DNA of 32,000 nt from Candidatus Heimdallarchaeota archaeon B3_Heim (GCA_003144275.1 NJBF01000037.1:1-32000), one strand, 5' to 3'; shown: positions 5,505 to 30,703, counted from the stretch's first letter. Notes: a model not told the origin generated them from the letters alone. Translations and numbers: made by a program.

Positions 5505-7109
5505 TCATTTATTCCTCAAGAAAGGATTGGATTTTCTTAGTTTTTTTTTCAGAGAAATAGTCCATATAATTTCTTCTTTTTTTTTGAATTTGACAAAAAA
5601 AATCCCAATGATCAGTTGAATAGGAAACAGTGTATAACCCGAAGTACGATTTGTGGTAGTTGCTATTCGTGTTTGGATTATGGAGATGGTAATGTTCGTC
5701 AATGGACCAATACCAAAATCGACGGAATCAGTTGGCGTATGGTTCAACATGTAACTGGTAATGAAATACGATTCATCAAGTGAATCACAGGAAAAATCGC
5801 TATTAATGATCTCATTTGATTCATCGTGAAGATTTTGGTAGAATTGCCACCCGTTGGAATCATGAATAACAAGAGAGACACCTATAGCCTGAAGAGGGGC
5901 TTTTTTTATTTGGAGTGTAAATTTATCAGGTAGCTCCTTTAGTTTCAAAACATGGAAACCATAATAGCGAAGTAAGATGGTTTTGTTATGAATGGGAAAT
6001 TCATTCGCGATGTTAAAGCCAGATATTTGAGCGTTTAACTGTGAAAAGCCGTAAAGGTTATTCGCTACTTCAGGTTTATCGATTGTTACTGCGGTAATCC
6101 AATTTAAGTAGAGTTCATTGAATGTGACATTATAACCAGACGATTGAAGAACATTCTCAATACCTTTAGGACCATCAGCTGGCTCTTTGACTAATTTACG
6201 AAGGGTATCCAAACCATATTTTTCTGCAAGGTAGAAGGTAAATAGATATGCACTTCCATAATCGATAGCTCTGGGCATTCCCTCCTCGCTGTATACATTA
6301 AAATATAAGAGTGAATCTTCTGGAAGTGGAAGAAAATCTGCCACACGTGATGTTAGATTGGAATACGATGTTAGATAACCTGAATGGTACGTGGCATATT
6401 CTGCTAATCCCTCTAGAGTGAAGTGGGGCTCATCAAACTCATTGTTAAACCAAATAAGATGATGGAACTCATGCGCAATGGTGGTATGTAAATAAAATAG
6501 CCATTGAGATAGTTGGTAGTAGATGTAAATCATTTCGCATTCATTGCTGTAATCCAAAACTTGTTCGTTTCTCTGAGAATAGTAAGATGTCCAATTACGA
6601 GAAAGTAAAATAACAATTCTAGGGTCACCATCGATATCCCCTAAAGTTCCATTGGGATGGCCCGCTAAATCTGTAACTCCTGGATAGATTATATTGTCAA
6701 ATTCAGAGCAGATCGATTCTGCAAGCATATATACATTTGATTCTTCAAGCTCCGAAATGCAGCTATTCTCCAAAAAAACATAGCAATACATCCCAACACC
6801 AAATATTGTTGCGTTTATTAGATAGTATATTGAATCAGTGAAATCCCAAGACCAGAAGGTACGCTGATAGCCAACCTCAAAGGTTTCGCTGTACCGAATT
6901 GAAAACGGCACTCTTTTAGAAGATTCGAACGTCCTAGAATCCTGACCATAATGAGAGGGTTTGACAACATCGAAAGGTTGAATTATGGTCTCCATCTGTC
7001 TTTGAGTGGGAAAAATATGTGCCTGTGTTTTACCTGTGATTAGTAAACCATTTTGAGTGACTAGACTCAAGAATAAAAAAATAACAGTAAAAATTATTCG
7101 TATCTGCAC
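5505..7109 (-). CDS. Secreted, C-terminally anchored zinc metallopeptidase (HEXXH, M30-like)
   Basis: AHEFHH plus EGLAEY, and DIDGDPRIVILL. Hydrophobic N-terminus; C-terminal SGY-hydrophobic-basic tail. GTG at 7109 follows AGGTGAAGGA. Confidence 0.75.
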   Translation of the reverse strand: MQIRIIFTVIFLFLSLVTQNGLLITGKTQAHIFPTQRQMETIIQPFDVVKPSHYGQDSRTFESSKRVPFSIRYSETFEVGYQRTFWSWDFTDSIYYLINATIFGVGMYCYVFLENSCISELEESNVYMLAESICSEFDNIIYPGVTDLAGHPNGTLGDIDGDPRIVILLSRNWTSYYSQRNEQVLDYSNECEMIYIYYQLSQWLFYLHTTIAHEFHHLIWFNNEFDEPHFTLEGLAEYATYHSGYLTSYSNLTSRVADFLPLPEDSLLYFNVYSEEGMPRAIDYGSAYLFTFYLAEKYGLDTLRKLVKEPADGPKGIENVLQSSGYNVTFNELYLNWITAVTIDKPEVANNLYGFSQLNAQISGFNIANEFPIHNKTILLRYYGFHVLKLKELPDKFTLQIKKAPLQAIGVSLVIHDSNGWQFYQNLHDESNEIINSDFSCDSLDESYFITSYMLNHTPTDSVDFGIGPLTNITISIIQTRIATTTNRTSGYTLFPIQLIIGIFFVKFKKKEEIIWTISLKKKLRKSNPFLRNK

Positions 7110-22757: not shown

Positions 22758-23408
22758 ATGCAAATTTACTTGATTAGACACGGAGAAAGTACAGGTAACA
22801 AAGAAAAAGCTTTTCAGGGATGGAATAACGTTCATTTAAGTGAACAGGGAAAAATCCAGGCTAAAAAATTGGCTGATTATCTTTTCGGGGAAAAAATTAA
22901 CCTAAGGATAATATTTTCTAGCCCTCTCATTCGAGCAATGGAAACTGCAGAACCATTAACGATTTGTTCAACTAGTCCTGATATAATTACAGTTGATGGA
23001 TTTAAATCGATTAATGTCGGTGAATGGGGAGGAATTTTGATATCAAGGGTGAAAGAGGATTTTCCAAAGGAGTACAATATTTGGAAGCATTCACCAACAA
23101 AATTCCGTTTTCCGAAAGGGGAATCCTTAACTGATGTTCACAACCGCTCCCAAGCTTCTCTTATACATATCTTGCATAAATATATTGATTTTGGTGGAAA
23201 TATCGCAATAGTTTCACATATGATTACTATCAAAGCGTTAGCATTGTGGATGCTTGGGAAAAATCTAGGAAACATCTGGAAAAAAGAATATACAGTGCCT
23301 AATACTGGTATAATGGTTTTTAAAGTGGAAAAGGAAGAATCGACCGATTTCAGTTTCCAGCGCGTTGAAATAAATAATCCTATACCACATTTAGAGTCTA
23401 CAATCTAG
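22758..23408 (+). CDS. Histidine phosphatase (phosphoglycerate mutase) family protein
   Basis: IYLIRHGES, SSPLIRAMETA, FPKGESL and IVSH motifs. Confidence 0.9.
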   Translation: MQIYLIRHGESTGNKEKAFQGWNNVHLSEQGKIQAKKLADYLFGEKINLRIIFSSPLIRAMETAEPLTICSTSPDIITVDGFKSINVGEWGGILISRVKEDFPKEYNIWKHSPTKFRFPKGESLTDVHNRSQASLIHILHKYIDFGGNIAIVSHMITIKALALWMLGKNLGNIWKKEYTVPNTGIMVFKVEKEESTDFSFQRVEINNPIPHLESTI

Positions 23409-24043
23409 GAAGAGAGAGATTTCTTCCCACAATGCGTACAGAAGATACTACCTGCCTCTAATTGCCTTCCACAAGATGGACATTGTGAACCAGATATCGG
23501 ATCTGATAATGTTTGCTTATTCAAAGTCTTATCAACATTCTCAGGTGGATAATAACGTTCTTTATACTCTGAAGTTGATCTTTCTTCAATTAATGCACCT
23601 AAGGTTCCCGCAATTAGAAAAAATCCATAAGCTGTAACAAGAGTGTATCCAAAGGATATTGTTGGTAAAAAAAGTCCAATTAAAATAACAAACGCCCCTA
23701 TTCCTCCAATGAGCGTTATGACTGCCCCCTTTTGAGATTTATTAAGGATAAATGGACCTGGTTTGCTGGATGTTACAACTATTAATCCGTTTAGGACTCC
23801 TGTCACTAGAAAGAATGGAAAGGCTATTACGATTGCCAAACCAAAGTCTATATGTTGGGCAAAAATAGACAATAATATAGGAAAAACGCCAATTCCACCA
23901 ATAAATGTGATCAGAGCTTCTTTGTAATTCTTCTTCAATCTGTACACCTCTTCGGAAGTAGGAATTATATTTGAGAGTACTGTTCTCGTGTTTATATGAT
24001 TTTGAATAGAGGTATACATTCTCACCATCCTTAGCCTAATCAA
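23405..24043 (-). CDS. Four-TM membrane protein with internal duplication and C-terminal zinc ribbon
   Basis: Two similar two-helix units (ITFIGGIGVF...FFLVTGVL and ITLIGGIGAF...FFLIAGTL); C-terminal CPSCG...FCTHCG. Confidence 0.75.
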   Translation of the reverse strand: MIRLRMVRMYTSIQNHINTRTVLSNIIPTSEEVYRLKKNYKEALITFIGGIGVFPILLSIFAQHIDFGLAIVIAFPFFLVTGVLNGLIVVTSSKPGPFILNKSQKGAVITLIGGIGAFVILIGLFLPTISFGYTLVTAYGFFLIAGTLGALIEERSTSEYKERYYPPENVDKTLNKQTLSDPISGSQCPSCGRQLEAGSIFCTHCGKKSLSS

Positions 24044-24058
24044 CTCACTAAGTTGTCC

Positions 24059-24760
24059 CTACTCTGGTGTTTTCCTTTTTATTTGTATTTTAGATATTTT
24101 CGTTTTGATTATTGTGGGAGGGACAGATTCTTCTTCCATTGGTCTTTTTTCTAGGATAGATTTTGGAGGTGTTTTACTCCTGATATCTTTTTTGTGCTTT
24201 TGTTTGAATCCTAGTGTGCTAGGGGGAGGTATAGTTGTTTTGTTGGGAATTTCTGCGGTGATGCGATGTGGAGGAGTCTTGTTTATTATCCGATTTCGTT
24301 TCTTTTCAGCAATACCTCTACGAGTTGGTGGGACATTTTTATGATCCTGGATTTTTTTTCTTCGTGGGGGGACTTTTCGATTTACTAGGCCTTTTTTACG
24401 TCTTGATTTTGGGAGGCTCCCTTTAGTAGATGGAGTTGCCAATTCTTTCCTACCGTGAGTCTGAGTAACAGGAGGAAGATTGTTCGTGCTAGGTATTTGC
24501 TTTTTTCTCTTTTCTTTTGTTCCATGACTGGTGGGATAGGTACCAGATTCTTTTTTTATTAGTCCATTCTCATTTTTTCGCGCAGGAGGTAGCTTAAATT
24601 GCTCTTTCAAATCATTAGGAGTTTTTTGTTGAATAGTAGCAACTTTTTCTTTCATTGGAGTTTTCTCTTTGATTGTATCCTTCGGCTTTTTTGATCGAAC
24701 TTTGAATCGAGCCACTTTGTACATACCATCCTGCACTATTTTCAAAAATAACTTCTTCAA
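24059..24760 (-). CDS. Lys/Arg/Pro-rich low-complexity protein with recurrent KTPP/xVPP motifs
   Basis: 233 aa. Sits in the operon 15 bp and 48 bp from its neighbours. About 13 periodic x-[TVLI]-P-[PK] motifs. Confidence 0.65.
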   Translation of the reverse strand: MKKLFLKIVQDGMYKVARFKVRSKKPKDTIKEKTPMKEKVATIQQKTPNDLKEQFKLPPARKNENGLIKKESGTYPTSHGTKEKRKKQIPSTNNLPPVTQTHGRKELATPSTKGSLPKSRRKKGLVNRKVPPRRKKIQDHKNVPPTRRGIAEKKRNRIINKTPPHRITAEIPNKTTIPPPSTLGFKQKHKKDIRSKTPPKSILEKRPMEEESVPPTIIKTKISKIQIKRKTPE

Positions 24761-24808: not shown

Positions 24809-25393
24809 TTATTTTCCCAGAATAAATCCAATTCCAGAGAAAACGAAAAAGAGACCGTATAATATTCCAAGAAAATCAGATGCAAATGCTCCAGCAATTA
24901 GAAATAGAATCCCGAAGATAAGAAATGTGAAAATTGCCGTCCATTCGGCGGAAGGCCCCCTCTCAGACTGAGCAGTAATTCTAATGAATTGATAGCGAGT
25001 GAAACTTCTTATTAACAACGCTGTTGAGACCACTAAATACGGAAAAGCAAGTAAGGAAGGGACTGCAATATGAAGTTCGATGAATTCATTTGAAGGCATC
25101 ATATTAATTTCAAAGGATAATAAAACTTCTTGAAAAATAGGAATAAAGGGACTAGTAAAGACAATTACTAGAGGAATGATATTTGCAAGGGATATAAAGT
25201 AGATTTCGTTTAAAGTGGCATGATGATCAACGTAGTAGAATATCCGTAGGAAGTACAATATAGTAATCGCGGTGTAAATGGATAAGAAAAGGATGTTAAG
25301 AGCTAATGTATCCTTATTCTGTATAAAAAAGAAAATTGTAGCTGATACGCCAATGAGCATGATAAACCAAGCGATATTATGTCGTATAGCCAT
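24809..25393 (-). CDS. Multi-pass membrane protein
   Basis: 194 aa, about six hydrophobic segments, 18 bp downstream of the RING gene. Confidence 0.75.
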   Translation of the reverse strand: MAIRHNIAWFIMLIGVSATIFFFIQNKDTLALNILFLSIYTAITILYFLRIFYYVDHHATLNEIYFISLANIIPLVIVFTSPFIPIFQEVLLSFEINMMPSNEFIELHIAVPSLLAFPYLVVSTALLIRSFTRYQFIRITAQSERGPSAEWTAIFTFLIFGILFLIAGAFASDFLGILYGLFFVFSGIGFILGK

Positions 25394-25411: not shown

Positions 25412-26524
25412 TTATTTTCTGTATTTTTTCTGGAACATTTGAATTATTTTCTGATAACTGGGTCCTGAAATCCGGATCATTTTTACATTATTAATGGGTT
25501 TATTACAACGGCTACAAATATTAGACACTAGAAGCCATTTTTGAAACTCATCAGCATGAGATGGATGTTTACAACGGGGGCAAATGACTACTTGTTTATC
25601 TGATTCTGTGGGAAATTCATAGCAATAAATACATCGAAAATCGTCCTTTGAAATGTTCTGACCTGCTGGGGTTAAACTGGCAATAAGTGCAGGAGTTAGC
25701 TTCCTCTTTGTTCTCTTTGGCATGTGTATTGGAGGAGCGACCTGAACATTTGATCTCTGGGGACTTCTACTCGCTCTTTCCTGTACTTGAGTTACACGTG
25801 ATGGCTGTGGAGTTGATCGACGAGTTTCTACTGATGTTCTAGAAGATCTAACAGCTCTTCTCTGTGATTGAAAATCTCTAGTGGAAGTTCTAGAAACCCG
25901 TCTAAAGGGAATAATTACAAATTTGAGTATATAATTTTGAAAGAAGGTTAGGATACTGAAAAGTAAGAAAAATAATGACGATAGTTCAATTGTTTTCTGA
26001 TCTAACCAAAAAATGGTGAAAATTACAAGAAAACTTGCATTTAACACAATTATCGATTCAGAAGGAAATCGTCGTCGAAATATGAAAATATTAGGATAGG
26101 TTCCAGAATAGTATCTTCTAATTAGAATTCCGAGGATTGCAAAGAAGGGTAAACAAAATATTAGACTAAATAAATTTAAAAACAGATAGAAAGAATCTAG
26201 CTGAAATAAATTTAGGTTTAAATCTAATTCAATAAATGTTGCATGGAGAATATTTTCAGTATCGTCCAATGTGGCAGTAAATGCAGTCAAACTCCCCCCG
26301 ATAGCAATCAGGGCAGGAATACTAATGAAAATTGCTGAAGCTAGTGGAGCATTATATGATCGGTAATATCGCCATTCATCTACTAGTTTGATTAGTAAAA
26401 TAGCAACGAAAGTGAAATAAATTAACGTTATCGAGAGAGAGCTTTGTGGGTTAACGATTTGGCTTAAGAACGCAAAGACCAATCCAGTGAGAAAAACAGA
26501 AATATAGACATTTCTTCCAACCAA
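25412..26524 (-). CDS. Multi-pass membrane protein with C-terminal RING-like domain (putative E3 ligase)
   Basis: About six to seven TM segments, an Arg/Ser-rich linker, then CIYC-x14-CPRCKHPSHADE...W...CSRC. Confidence 0.8.
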   Translation of the reverse strand: MVGRNVYISVFLTGLVFAFLSQIVNPQSSLSITLIYFTFVAILLIKLVDEWRYYRSYNAPLASAIFISIPALIAIGGSLTAFTATLDDTENILHATFIELDLNLNLFQLDSFYLFLNLFSLIFCLPFFAILGILIRRYYSGTYPNIFIFRRRFPSESIIVLNASFLVIFTIFWLDQKTIELSSLFFLLFSILTFFQNYILKFVIIPFRRVSRTSTRDFQSQRRAVRSSRTSVETRRSTPQPSRVTQVQERASRSPQRSNVQVAPPIHMPKRTKRKLTPALIASLTPAGQNISKDDFRCIYCYEFPTESDKQVVICPRCKHPSHADEFQKWLLVSNICSRCNKPINNVKMIRISGPSYQKIIQMFQKKYRK

Positions 26525-26547: not shown

Positions 26548-27369
26548 TCAATCATAGTCATATTCTAAGAACATTGTTTTCCCTTCTGCTAAGGGTAGTA
26601 GTGTGCTGATTAATTCCGGAAGACTTTCTAAAGGACAGTTTAAAACTTCATGACGAGGTTCTTCCCATGTTTTCAAATCTTTTTTTAGCCTGAAGATTTT
26701 GAATCCATAATTTCTTCTGGATATTTTAGTTGGATCAATAACGAGGGCTATCGGCGCCGCGAGTTGAGATCCTTTAGTTCCTAATTTTTGATAGCGAACT
26801 TGTGTTCTATAATCCGTTGTACTCATAAATGCTCCATAAGAAGGATGTGAATGGTACCATCCAAGAATTAGTTCCTTTTTCTTCCTACTTTCATTAAATA
26901 CTCGCACCATGCTTTGGGGATCCTCGATTTGGGCATTAACATTTGTGCCATGACCTACTGGAAATGCATCTGTAATCACCAGACACGCAAGGGGAGTGTC
27001 TTTATTTTCAATATGTCCTGTTAACAGCCCTATAACTTCAACCCATTCTACTTGAGGAATTGTTGAATTTGCATACTTTAGAGCATGGAGACTTAGACGG
27101 ATATAGGCTTTTAATTGAAGTTTCACTCTTGCTGGATCAATTTCAGGATCTAGATCATCAATATCGAGTAAGTCTTCTTCTCCCTGAGTGCGGTCATTTT
27201 TCAACGAAAACGTCTCCTCTGAAGGAGGAATTTTTTTGGATTCAGTAGTCGGGAATTTTAAAGTAAGAGTTAAATTATCTGGATCATAATTCATGGAGGT
27301 ATCTCTCAGAAGAAGTTCGAATAAATTCCGCGGTTTTTCTTTTTTTTTATCTGGCATCAAATAGACCAC
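26548..27369 (-). CDS. JAB1/MPN/Mov34 (JAMM) metalloprotease, Rpn11/CSN5-like
   Basis: EVIGLL...GWYHSHPSYGAFMSTTD...LVIDP JAMM motif. Confidence 0.92.
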   Translation of the reverse strand: MVYLMPDKKKEKPRNLFELLLRDTSMNYDPDNLTLTLKFPTTESKKIPPSEETFSLKNDRTQGEEDLLDIDDLDPEIDPARVKLQLKAYIRLSLHALKYANSTIPQVEWVEVIGLLTGHIENKDTPLACLVITDAFPVGHGTNVNAQIEDPQSMVRVFNESRKKKELILGWYHSHPSYGAFMSTTDYRTQVRYQKLGTKGSQLAAPIALVIDPTKISRRNYGFKIFRLKKDLKTWEEPRHEVLNCPLESLPELISTLLPLAEGKTMFLEYDYD

Positions 27370-27402: not shown

Positions 27403-27930
27403 TCACCACTTCTTTTTTGCATACTTCTTAGTGATTTTTTTAGCCTTTTCTTTGAATTTACCCTTATTTTTCAGGTATTCCACTGCAGCTTTCTTGTTAA
27501 AAACATCATGAGGGTTGGTGTAAGCTTCATCAATATTGAACATGGCTAAAATTGAGTATATCACTGTGGTAACGTTTTTTGACGGAGACCATCCTTGTGG
27601 TTTCCCTACCAAGTCGGGGTCGACTAATCCAAGACAAATATTCCGTTTTCCCTTGTATTCATCAGGTTTGGGCCAAAAATTCGGGTGCCAAATCGGGGTA
27701 TGTAATCTTACGAAAGGAGGAGAATAGGGGTAATTGGAACCAAATTTGATTTCGAGCATAAACTTCCCGTCTTGGTAGGGAGTACCTTTTGGACCTTCGA
27801 GAAGAATAGCTAAGTGCTCTACACTTTTTTTCTCTCCTGGGAAAGCTTTTAGCTGTTTAATCGTCTTTTGCTTGTAAAGAGTTTTTAATTGATTATAATC
27901 TTCTGCAATACGTTTAATGCGAATAGACAT
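27403..27930 (-). CDS. Ubiquitin-conjugating enzyme E2
   Basis: GPKGTPYQDGKF...YPYSPPFVRLHTPIWHPN...ICL...WSP UBC-fold motifs with catalytic Cys. Confidence 0.95.
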   Translation of the reverse strand: MSIRIKRIAEDYNQLKTLYKQKTIKQLKAFPGEKKSVEHLAILLEGPKGTPYQDGKFMLEIKFGSNYPYSPPFVRLHTPIWHPNFWPKPDEYKGKRNICLGLVDPDLVGKPQGWSPSKNVTTVIYSILAMFNIDEAYTNPHDVFNKKAAVEYLKNKGKFKEKAKKITKKYAKKKW

Positions 27931-27936
27931 GATAAA

Positions 27937-29175
27937 TTAACCTTCTAACTTTAGTGTAAGATATGCTTGTGATCCATCGTCAAAACCTGTTACAAGAACT
28001 GTCTCACAATCCCTTATTTCAGCTTGAGATATTGTTTGTTCCATAGATATTTCCCCAACTTCAGAAGAATCAATCCTAAATATCATAGGAGGAAATTCAG
28101 GGTCAATTGGGTAATTTTTATTATGAGAAAATTTCTCTATTAACCGTGTTAAAGGAAAGTTTCGTTTAACTTTGATACGAAACATTGAAGTTCTTCCCCG
28201 TCCACACATCTCGCATTTGGGATTACGTGGTTTTTCAATCTCATAAAATTTACCCGTTAAACCATTATAAATCAAATAGTTCAATTGGATATTCCCCAAT
28301 TTCTTATCTGGCTCTGGTGTGTGAATATGATGTAGTATTTTGACAGCCTCTTGTGATTGAAGAGATGCCATTACGCAATTTATCGTGATAACTGTCGGCT
28401 CGTGATTATCAATTATCTGAATAATCTGGTTGATCGAAAATTGCTCTTCTTGGGGAAAATATTCTTTGAGAAGTTTATTTGCATATAAAACCACATCTTT
28501 AACTTCATTTGACTTTAGAATATTAACTGGTTTTCCGTGTTTTTGTTCGAAGTGTAACTGTCCTTTAAGAATACAATGAGCTGGTCTACGAGGTTTTCCC
28601 ACAAGTGTACATGCTCCAAGCTGATCTTGATTACGTTCAGTTAAAGGATCACACTCCAAGCATGCGTTATTGAACGGAGAAACTACATATGTATGGCCAT
28701 TGTACACTGAAGTGCCTGCATCAATGAGATATTTCTTGTTATGAACTGCTCTTCGATTTAATTCAGATCTAGCTTCAATAGAGTCAAGACCAGCAATATA
28801 AAAATCGACCTTGCTGTAAATATGAGGAGGTACATCTTGTAAGGGGCAATCATAAGCATCAATGGTGATGAATGGATTCATTTCACGAAGTCTTTTCGCT
28901 GCGATCTTTGCTTTTGAAGCACCCTCTGGTGCACCAATAAACAATATCTGACGATTCAAATTTGAATATTCTATTGTATCAAGATCCACAAGTATTAAGT
29001 GTCCAACACCAACCATAGCCAAGTTTTTAGCTATTTCTACGCCTAAGCCCCCTATTCCCGCAATGAGGACTGAGCTTTGTTTTAGAATTTCCTGGTTCCA
29101 TCCAGGAAGACGAAATTGACGATCAAAGCGTCGTTTTTCCTCATGTGTTAGTGTTTTACTTGTGAAATTTGACAT
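27937..29175 (-). CDS. Ubiquitin-like activating enzyme E1 (ThiF fold, UBA3-like catalytic-Cys region, C-terminal extra domain)
   Basis: RFDRQ, GIGGLG, DLDTIEYSNLNRQ, CLEC and CEMC Zn pairs, and ACTLVGKPRRPAHC (PxCTxxxxP-like). Confidence 0.93.
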   Translation of the reverse strand: MSNFTSKTLTHEEKRRFDRQFRLPGWNQEILKQSSVLIAGIGGLGVEIAKNLAMVGVGHLILVDLDTIEYSNLNRQILFIGAPEGASKAKIAAKRLREMNPFITIDAYDCPLQDVPPHIYSKVDFYIAGLDSIEARSELNRRAVHNKKYLIDAGTSVYNGHTYVVSPFNNACLECDPLTERNQDQLGACTLVGKPRRPAHCILKGQLHFEQKHGKPVNILKSNEVKDVVLYANKLLKEYFPQEEQFSINQIIQIIDNHEPTVITINCVMASLQSQEAVKILHHIHTPEPDKKLGNIQLNYLIYNGLTGKFYEIEKPRNPKCEMCGRGRTSMFRIKVKRNFPLTRLIEKFSHNKNYPIDPEFPPMIFRIDSSEVGEISMEQTISQAEIRDCETVLVTGFDDGSQAYLTLKLEG

Positions 29176-29800: not shown

Positions 29801-30154
29801 TTAATTCCATCCAGCGGTTGAATGAGGAATTAAGAGGATTTCATCACCATTTTCGATTCCATAATCTCCGATTGGAGAGCTTTCATCCAGAGTTCGTCCA
29901 GCATGAGATAAGTGAAAATCATCTGGATCTAATCCAAATATATTCGCTAGTGTATCTCGGACATCTCTCACGGGTGTTTTTTCACCGACGGAGAGTTTCT
30001 CTGTTCTCTCAGGGCCAACGGTTGATTTAAAGAAAATATTCTTCTTGGGTCCAGAGGTAGTCCCTGTTACGGGTGTCTTCGACTGTGCAGGAGTTTTTGC
30101 CTTTACAGACGATGTTTCTTCAAGATCAAAATCTATATCTTCAAAGTCACTCAT
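29801..30154 (-). CDS. Ubiquitin-like protein 2: acidic N-terminal extension, C-terminus ...PHSTAG-WN
   Basis: Paralogue of Ubl1 (FFKSTVG...IFGLDPDDFHLSHAGRTLDE...YGIENGDEILLIP). Confidence 0.9.
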   Translation of the reverse strand: MSDFEDIDFDLEETSSVKAKTPAQSKTPVTGTTSGPKKNIFFKSTVGPERTEKLSVGEKTPVRDVRDTLANIFGLDPDDFHLSHAGRTLDESSPIGDYGIENGDEILLIPHSTAGWN

Positions 30155-30322: not shown

Positions 30323-30703
30323 GTGTCGAAAGAAGCTCAAAATGTCAAGATTTCTAGTAAGGCATGGGAGATGCTTCGTTGGGCAAAATTTGAACTAACT
30401 GAGAAATCTTATAGCGATGTACTCATCAAATTAGATGGTACAATTCAGAACAGAGCTCATTCTCTTCAAGAGGAACTTAAGGAGTTTGATGAAGGTCGTC
30501 ATAGGATTGAAATGAAAATCCCAGGAGAAGGGAAAGTAACTAAAAGTTCGAAAACTATTCTACTAAGACCAGATGCTCATAAAATCTTAAGTCGTCTCAA
30601 ACTTGAAAGTAATACATCTGCGTACACATTTTCAGATGCTATTGAGTTTCTGATAAAACAAAATTCAGCTATTTGGGAAAGTATTCCAGATCGCTTGAAA
30701 TAA
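30323..30703 (+). CDS. Putative DNA-binding protein with two tandem RHH/VapB-antitoxin-like repeats
   Basis: NVKISSKAWEMLRWAK...SYSDVLIKL and TILLRPDAHKILSRLK...TFSDAIEFLI both fit the [KT]TI.I....Y..L...K...SFSDVI..L pattern. GTG start. Confidence 0.65.
   Translation: MSKEAQNVKISSKAWEMLRWAKFELTEKSYSDVLIKLDGTIQNRAHSLQEELKEFDEGRHRIEMKIPGEGKVTKSSKTILLRPDAHKILSRLKLESNTSAYTFSDAIEFLIKQNSAIWESIPDRLK

Follow-up and report, generated by a model that had tools for sequence, protein, structure and literature searches.

The locus and its operon

The window considered here, that is, the whole stretch of DNA that was analysed, comprises 32,000 nucleotides (35% G+C) of Candidatus Heimdallarchaeota archaeon B3_Heim (GCA_003144275.1, NJBF01000037.1:1-32000) and carries, on the minus strand at positions 25412-26524, a gene for a polytopic membrane protein with a C-terminal RING-fold finger, here called TM-RING. 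It is accompanied on the same strand by genes for two ubiquitin-like proteins (Ubls), an activating enzyme (E1), a conjugating enzyme (E2), a JAMM metalloprotease and a second membrane protein, TM6:

25412-26524, minus strand: TM-RING gene, candidate membrane-anchored ligase (E3); open reading frame (ORF) of 370 amino acids (aa) with a TTG start, supported by homologues and Asgard-wide occurrence
25901-26524, minus strand: membrane domain of TM-RING (aa 1-208), six transmembrane (TM) helices in the AlphaFold2 model
25694-25900, minus strand: disordered linker of TM-RING, rich in Ser, Arg, Thr and Pro (aa 209-277); predicted local distance difference test (pLDDT) <50 at residues 210-273
25415-25693, minus strand: RING-fold finger of TM-RING with flanking helices (aa 278-370), from fold matches, a profile match to RNF24 and invariant columns
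24809-25393, minus strand: TM6, RING-less paralogue of the membrane domain, 194 aa, from profile comparison, model and adjacency
26548-27369, minus strand: JAMM/MPN+ metalloprotease, Rpn11-like (PF01398 (JAB), E 2.6e-15; H-S-H-P-S...D motif visible)
27403-27930, minus strand: E2, UBC fold (UQ_con, E 1e-26)
27937-29175, minus strand: E1, ThiF-type adenylation domain (E 2e-52) with a C-terminal extension of about 90 aa
29201-29698, minus strand: Ubl-B, weak match to the ubiquitin family (E 1e-3), ending STAG-stop, conserved position
29801-30154, minus strand: Ubl-A (PF00240, E 1.2e-8), ending STAG-WN (a precursor tail), conserved position

The ORF at 25412-26524 is a real, conserved gene: its homologues, which begin at the same MVxRN as the TTG start, form 60 clusters of full-length proteins, all of them Asgard (Hodarchaeales, Heimdallarchaeota and others), a family profile at E <= 1e-10 matches 185 of the 400 Asgard genomes scanned, and the synteny is conserved, all of which speaks against chance. 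Each of the 60 clusters bears the label 'hypothetical', and no precomputed Pfam domain is assigned to any. The gene occurs in 19 of 21 genomes of the window's own family, in 23 of 31 and 7 of 12 genomes of two further families of the same class, and in 116 of 135 and 7 of 14 genomes of two families belonging to other classes, while the window's genome (3.95 Mb in 103 contigs, 94% complete) holds a single copy. Further members, found by exact look-up, come from Helarchaeota, from Borrarchaeum and from metagenome-assembled genomes (MAGs) of Lokiarchaeota, and Candidatus Lokiarchaeum ossiferum carries one (NEF87_002992, with the automatic UniRef name 'RING-type domain-containing protein') on its chromosome of 6,035,313 bp.

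The original prediction held that this protein is co-encoded with E1, E2 and JAMM, as was borne out by Pfam matches of the same-strand genes upstream, and the window thus brings together the full set by which an archaeal ubiquitylation operon is recognised (Ubl, E1, E2, RING protein and JAMM). The best PDB sequence matches of the E1 are UBA1, UBA7, NAE (UBA3) and SAE2; those of the E2, which has an HPN motif, a candidate active-site Cys in NICLG and PY and SPS loops, are UBE2R2 (Cdc34), Ubc13 and UBE2T (E ~1e-16); and the JAMM protein best matches the Rpn11-like protein of Caldiarchaeum (6fjv, E 9e-12), followed by CSN5 and Rpn11. Judged by these closest relatives, the cascade is therefore eukaryote-like.

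The genes follow one another in the conserved order Ubl-Ubl-E1-E2-JAMM-(TM-RING), with TM-RING in sixth place. E2 and JAMM lie immediately upstream of it in every examined locus with enough flanking DNA, and the full row, with one or two Ubl genes, does so in most loci; the row is kept in at least 30 loci phylum-wide, from Hodarchaeales to Lokiarchaeum, Helarchaeia and Borrarchaeia, even where the identity of the ligase to that of the window falls to 20-25%. In two loci from another family of the same class (L036 and L037, genomes G020 and G051) the order is E2-JAMM-(TM-RING)-TM6, with Ubl and E1 downstream in L036 and E1 far upstream in L037, and the block of E2, JAMM, ligase and TM6 is therefore the most stable unit. 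In two related MAGs (L016 and L018, both at 6519-7059) the E2 is matched only by an ORF of 76 aa (C-terminal 43%), for which a frameshift, faulty assembly or splitting of the gene may be responsible.

Membrane domain and linker

In the AlphaFold2 model of TM-RING, obtained from a 30-sequence alignment (pLDDT 77), the membrane domain consists of helices at residues 2-24, 30-57, 60-80, 118-139, 156-176 and 181-208, with an external beta-hairpin (96-117) in the loop at 81-117 and a short hairpin in the loop at 140-155. Family-wide, the predicted cytoplasmic loops contain about 12 Lys and Arg residues against 1.3 in the external loops, which are acidic, and from this positive-inside bias it follows that both termini lie inside and that the finger is cytoplasmic. 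The best-conserved segments of the domain are cytoplasmic loops 2 (50-63) and 4 (136-156), with lower conservation in the external loops and the lipid-facing helices, a distribution in the alignments that speaks for a docking surface on the cytoplasmic side and not for an external sensor; membrane-domain columns invariant across the phylum were not found. About 45 residues are inserted behind helix 1 in one member (L041 8357-9628, minus strand, genome G127), whose genome contains two additional short matches to the RING region.

The linker comprises about 65 residues in the window's protein and 65-110 across the family, its length being variable, and is the least conserved part of TM-RING (conservation 0.38), with a composition of 21% Ser, 17% Arg, 11% Thr and 10% Pro. 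The overall layout that had been proposed for the protein, namely a polytopic bundle, a basic linker and a C-terminal RING, is thus confirmed by the six modelled helices, by the linker composition and by the RING/U-box fold described below.

When a profile of the membrane domain was run against 1.84 billion protein representatives, it retrieved 95 proteins, all of which were members of this family, fragments or TM6, the longest not exceeding 465 aa. Pfam likewise gave no family above cut-off for TM-RING, for TM6 or for the basic protein encoded downstream of them.

The RING finger

The C-terminal domain (278-369) is compact in the model, its N-terminal helices being short and its C-terminal helix long, and searches with residues 289-369 by Foldseek and VIA-align return RING and U-box domains only. 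The finger as modelled has the cross-brace beta-beta-alpha fold of these domains with its central helix. The best PDB sequence match of the finger-domain profile is the RING-H2 domain of RNF24 (2ep4, E 1.5e-4 over 50 columns), RNF165/Arkadia giving weaker matches. The assignment to RING domains, rather than to PHD or other fingers, therefore stands as originally predicted. A PHD finger was considered, since the spacing of ligands 3-6 fits, but was rejected: the Trp occupies the RING-H2 position, four residues past ligand 6 and seven ahead of ligand 7, the model has a helix at 324-333, and Pfam PHD models match only at E 0.04-0.08 in 12 of 20 members. After RNF24, the finger profile matches the C-terminal zinc fingers of WDR19/IFT144 (PDB 8bbf, 8fgw and 8bda, E 2e-3), and the Pfam family Zf_2nd_IFT121 matches weakly in 19 of 20 TM-RING members, a CPxC-[FY]PA motif being common to both; the resemblance may connect the family with the RING-like fingers of protocoatomer-type proteins, or be due to chance.

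The ligand pattern of the family is C-x2-C-x(12-16)-C-P-x-C-x4-H-x2-E-x10-C-x2-C, and C298, C301, C315, C318, P321, H323, W330, C337, R339 and C340 show no variation from Hodarchaeales through to Lokiarchaeum. Both strings noted in the original prediction, H-x2-H-x2-E and CPRC, are present, with Glu at ligand 6, but two details had to be revised: the first His, H320, varies (H/Y/R/F) and is therefore not a ligand, for which reason the RING-H2 (C3-H2-type) assignment was rejected, and the Cys regarded as extra is itself a ligand. Read from the alignments, the ligand set is C4-H-E-C2, both Cys of CPxC being ligands. Residue 326 is Glu in 72 of the 73 representatives with a full motif (Ala in the remaining one, L041) and in 16 of 17 sequences of alignment A4, and the same column holds His in two soluble RING paralogues of the same genome and Cys6 in RNF24, so that it is a genuine ligand position. 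On this basis zinc site 1 would be formed by C298, C301 and H323, with Glu326 in place of the usual sixth Cys or His, and zinc site 2 would be a Cys4 site (C315, C318, C337 and C340). The residues expected of an E2-binding face, a hydrophobic one after ligand 1 and a Trp in the central helix, are both present: I299 is shared by the whole close family, the position being I/M/L phylum-wide, and W330 does not vary.

TM6, the RING-less paralogue

TM6 is a RING-less paralogue of the TM-RING membrane domain, a relationship visible only with profiles, as BLASTP between the two is not significant (E 0.48) though the same positions 53-73 align. With broader alignments, hhalign relates TM6 to the membrane domain at 97.9% (E 4.1e-13) over 172 colinear columns, nearly all of TM6; with narrower ones, the comparison of profiles still gives 84% (E 7e-6). 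Among the 1.84 billion representatives, TM6-family proteins of 192-196 aa are retrieved by the membrane-domain profile at E 4e-7 to 8e-4, and these in turn score 1e-46 to 1e-72 against the TM6 profile. The AlphaFold2 model of TM6 (pLDDT 82) begins with three helices and an external hairpin, continues with a single helix and a short pair of cytoplasmic strands, and closes with two further helices, which is the order found in TM-RING.

Among homologues TM6 is more conserved than the ligase (63-87% against 44-78% identity). It is the immediate neighbour of the ligase in loci of the Hodarchaeales type and in two more from that class; in L002 and L003, which are divergent, it is found on the opposite side of the operon. 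Fold searches with its model (VIA-wide, Foldseek against the PDB, and Atlas) list designed helical bundles, two-helix hairpins, G-protein-coupled receptors, ferritins and cation diffusion facilitator (CDF) transporters at noise level, and neither HRD1 nor Derlin.

Other genes of the locus

Three further genes flank those described above:

24059-24760, minus strand: Lys/Pro-rich basic protein, 233 aa, recognised by composition, without a Pfam match
23405-24043, minus strand: membrane protein with a C-terminal zinc ribbon (Zn_Ribbon_1, E 2.7e-6) and about four hydrophobic segments
30323-30703, plus strand: divergent RHH/VapB-like gene (VAPB_antitox, E 1.9e-5, below cut-off)

The basic protein contains 47 Lys, 27 Pro and eight xxPP repeats (e.g., KVPP and KTPP), has no TM segment, and is encoded directly downstream of TM6 in most Hodarchaeales-type loci; it may be a substrate or an adaptor of the Ubl system. 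The membrane protein with the zinc ribbon ends the gene row only in the window and its closest relatives (L004-L006). The RHH/VapB-like gene, a homologue of which adjoins the operon in most loci, on the opposite side in L002 and L003, is likely a dedicated regulator.

Proposed function and alternative explanations

Because TM-RING is a polytopic protein with a RING fold that is co-encoded with E1, E2 and JAMM, we consider it probable, though well short of certain, that it is the membrane-anchored E3 of the operon's conjugation cascade, whose Ubls end in Ala-Gly. It is best read as an analogue of the eukaryotic membrane RING ligases rather than as an established homologue. The topology agrees with this, as it places the finger on the cytoplasmic side together with E1, E2 and Ubl. 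The predicted mechanism is then as follows: six TM helices would anchor the protein in the cytoplasmic membrane with the N- and C-terminus both inside, and the flexible basic linker of 65-110 residues would set the reach of the finger around this anchor. The finger would bind the charged E2 of the operon via the usual RING face (the Ile after ligand 1 and the Trp of the central helix) and promote transfer of Ubl to lysine residues in proteins located within or at the membrane, on its inner face. The JAMM protease would both mature the Ubl-A precursor, which has two residues after Ala-Gly, and remove conjugates. In the sampled genomes of the Heimdallarchaeia class, TM6 probably hetero-oligomerizes with the ligase through the shared membrane module. 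A complex prediction for TM-RING(1-215) and TM6, both given as alignments, scored 0.10 against a mark of 0.32, which counts neither for nor against such a pairing.

Several findings weigh against a ligase of this kind. Only seven of the eight Cys/His ligands are present, position 6 being Glu (Ala in one member), and zinc site 1 may therefore be weak or unoccupied. RING E3s usually have an Arg or Lys, the 'linchpin', directly after ligand 8; in TM-RING this position is Asn341 in the window and Asp, Ser or Gly in distant members, and Lys at +2 of ligand 8 is confined to the close family. None of the Pfam RING models attains its curated cut-off, the best giving about 17 bits where 27-29 are needed (zf-RING_16 17.2 against 27.4, Prok-RING_1 17.4 against 29.1, zf-RING_2 16.6 against 27.3), and with the whole ORF zf-RING_16 (E 0.023) and Prok-RING_1 (E 0.051) both remain below threshold. 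In those loci of Loki-, Hel- and Borr-type that were examined, moreover, TM6 was not found within 8 kb of the ligase, and a heteromer of ligase and TM6 therefore cannot be general.

The ligand, linchpin and Pfam results, to which may be added that U-box domains score as high as RINGs in the fold searches, are what would be expected of a non-catalytic scaffold or receptor, the finger of which lacks ligase competence and which tethers E2, Ubl or conjugates, or is itself the main substrate. We consider this unlikely, since among the loci examined other RING genes were seen near the operon only as a small RING ORF in L031 and a zf-RING_2 gene in L002, so that with none in this operon the cascade would be without an E3, and since the Ile and Trp of the E2 face are conserved. 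The invariant Arg339, at -1 of ligand 8 and thus between ligands 7 and 8, could substitute as linchpin, and Asn-Lys likewise follows ligand 8 in the soluble paralogue L024. A further explanation would make TM-RING a transporter or channel, the six-helix module being its functional core and the RING a regulatory cytoplasmic tail placing its turnover under Ubl control. Six TM helices with both termini inside would suit such a protein, and a weak similarity to CDF transporters (YiiP/ZnT) recurs for both paralogues, the top Atlas row reaching a TM-score of 0.41. We rejected this similarity as non-significant (Foldseek E 0.5-2.4, probability ~0.1, root-mean-square deviation 13-15 A). As none of the membrane columns is invariant across the phylum, a conserved polar or charged site within the membrane is not apparent, conservation sits instead in the cytoplasmic loops, and the strict phylum-wide linkage to E1, E2 and JAMM argues for a member of the cascade rather than a client, all of which makes a transporter very improbable.

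Similarly improbable, in our estimation, is common ancestry with Hrd1 and gp78, whereby the six-helix domain and TM6 would form a retrotranslocation or membrane-extraction channel of an endoplasmic reticulum-associated degradation (ERAD)-like machine. The layout is indeed similar, a polytopic domain being followed by a C-terminal RING, and a paralogous membrane partner exists; the six-TM gene which the original prediction had linked to such a machine proved to be a paralogue of the membrane domain, but homology to Hrd1, gp78 or Derlin was not upheld by the exhaustive profile search, which retrieved nothing beyond the TM-RING family and TM6. The structural comparison with Hrd1 and Derlin that had been suggested gave a lone match within noise: 9uav chain B, at 4% identity and below the noise level of the tool for helical bundles (~13), a chain taken as HRD1 from its residue numbering (142-266 of a 266-residue chain), which fits the HRD1 membrane domain. 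This match pairs helices 1-4 of TM-RING (residues 1-142) with chain residues 142-266, which is not colinear relative to the RING, and no HRD1 or Derlin match was given by TM6 in VIA-wide, Foldseek or Atlas. In Hrd1 a long disordered segment follows the RING, whereas in TM-RING it lies between membrane domain and RING; where a Hrd1-type ligase would have a canonical RING-H2 (C3H2C3) soon after the last TM helix, TM-RING has C4-H-E-C2 and a linker of 65-110 residues after helix 6. Among the matches listed, the E2 is closest to Cdc34, Ubc13 and UBE2T and not to ERAD E2s, and components for Hrd3/SEL1L, Der1/Derlin or Cdc48 recruitment were not recognisable by Pfam among the operon neighbours, no genome-wide search having been made for them. 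What TM-RING has in common with Hrd1 and gp78 is accordingly read as layout alone, and an ERAD-like role as an analogy.

RING ligases embedded in membranes are considered eukaryotic and are associated with quality control and sorting at endomembranes. Here the RING protein of the operon is an integral membrane protein from Hodarchaeales to Lokiarchaeum, without detectable membrane-domain relatives beyond its twin TM6, and if it is active, ubiquitin-type tagging would have been organised at the membrane before eukaryogenesis. A bolder proposal, which we put forward tentatively and regard as rather unlikely to hold in full, is that an Asgard-wide membrane RING ligase, paired with TM6 in Heimdallarchaeia, tags membrane or membrane-proximal proteins with Ala-Gly Ubl for removal or sorting, which would amount to an ERAD-like or endosomal-sorting-like pathway in archaeal relatives of eukaryotes, with a membrane domain of independent origin and no known counterpart. 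As the cultured Lokiarchaeum ossiferum has the gene (NEF87_002992), TM-RING is directly testable, and the near-invariant Glu at a zinc-ligand position offers a natural test case for the ligand tolerance of RING domains. Ubiquitin operons of archaea, like soluble RING E3s, have been described before (PMC5654768, PMC6043591, PMC9192718, bioRxiv 10.1101/2023.07.25.550441); a published description of a membrane-embedded RING as the ligase of an archaeal operon, of its membrane domain or of its twin was not found.

Comparison with known systems

The operon of Caldiarchaeum subterraneum encodes ubiquitin, E1, E2, the E3 srfp and Rpn11 (PMC5654768, PMC6043591), and shares with that of the window a Ubl precursor, a eukaryote-type E1, a UBC-fold E2, an Rpn11-like JAMM, of which CsRpn11 is the best PDB match, and a RING protein. 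In the reconstituted Caldiarchaeum cascade the I30Q mutant of srfp abolished activity and W58A removed chain elongation, the linchpin of srfp being R69 (PMC5654768). The equivalents of I30 and W58 are conserved in TM-RING, which differs from srfp in having Glu at ligand 6 and neither Arg nor Lys at the position equivalent to R69. In addition, srfp is a small RING finger protein for which TM segments are not mentioned, whereas TM-RING has a six-helix domain and a long linker, and the Ubls of the window end in Ala-Gly where that of Caldiarchaeum ends in Gly-Gly. A supplementary table of the srfp paper gives 2ep4, the RNF24 structure, and 5d0k among the modelling templates of that study. RNF24 shares with TM-RING the [ligand 6]-x3-W and C-x2-C-N motifs but has Cys at ligand 6 and C-x-H as ligands 3/4, where TM-RING has C-P-x-C and the His is not conserved.

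Closer to home, a soluble RING E3 of Helarchaeia ubiquitylates UEV-Vps23 (bioRxiv 10.1101/2023.07.25.550441), and the TM-RING operon is separate from such ESCRT-linked ubiquitin genes. The window's own genome has two other RING proteins, matched by the full-length family profile over its finger region (E 1e-7 and 6e-6): L024, a soluble protein of 70 aa (L024 1507-1719, minus strand; G000:C10 at ~22.6 kb), which lies about 3 kb from another E2 (C10:19617-19991), one of five UQ_con matches in this genome, and L025, of 433 aa with a C-terminal RING (L025 1486-2787, minus strand; G000:C57 at ~97.9 kb). The soluble Asgard RINGs have the spacing C-x2-C...C-P-x-C-x4-H-x2-[ligand 6]-x3-W...C-x2-C in common with TM-RING, but in L024 and L025 ligand 6 is His and C-P-x-C supplies ligands 7/8, as opposed to Glu and C-S-R-C in TM-RING, and L024 is too short to include the six-helix domain.

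Prok-RING_1 (PF14446), the bacterial members of which carry TM helices, is likewise a prokaryotic RING found beside Ub-like, E1, E2 and JAB genes, and matches weakly in 19 of 20 TM-RING members. By the Pfam criterion TM-RING does not belong to it, as the whole protein scores 14.0 bits and the finger domain alone 17.4 against the required 29.1, and its membrane domain forms a separate, Asgard-only family.

Finally, the eukaryotic polytopic RING ligases, including Hrd1/SYVN1, gp78/AMFR, TRC8/RNF139, RNF121 and Pex2/10/12, have no detectable sequence relationship to TM-RING, which differs from them in the linker preceding its RING and in the C4-H-E-C2 ligand set. They nevertheless combine, as it does, a multi-pass domain with a C-terminal RING on the cytosolic side, to which a soluble E2 is recruited or, in TM-RING, would be recruited, and by analogy both would likely follow the same logic, in which ubiquitylation is confined to the surface of a membrane.

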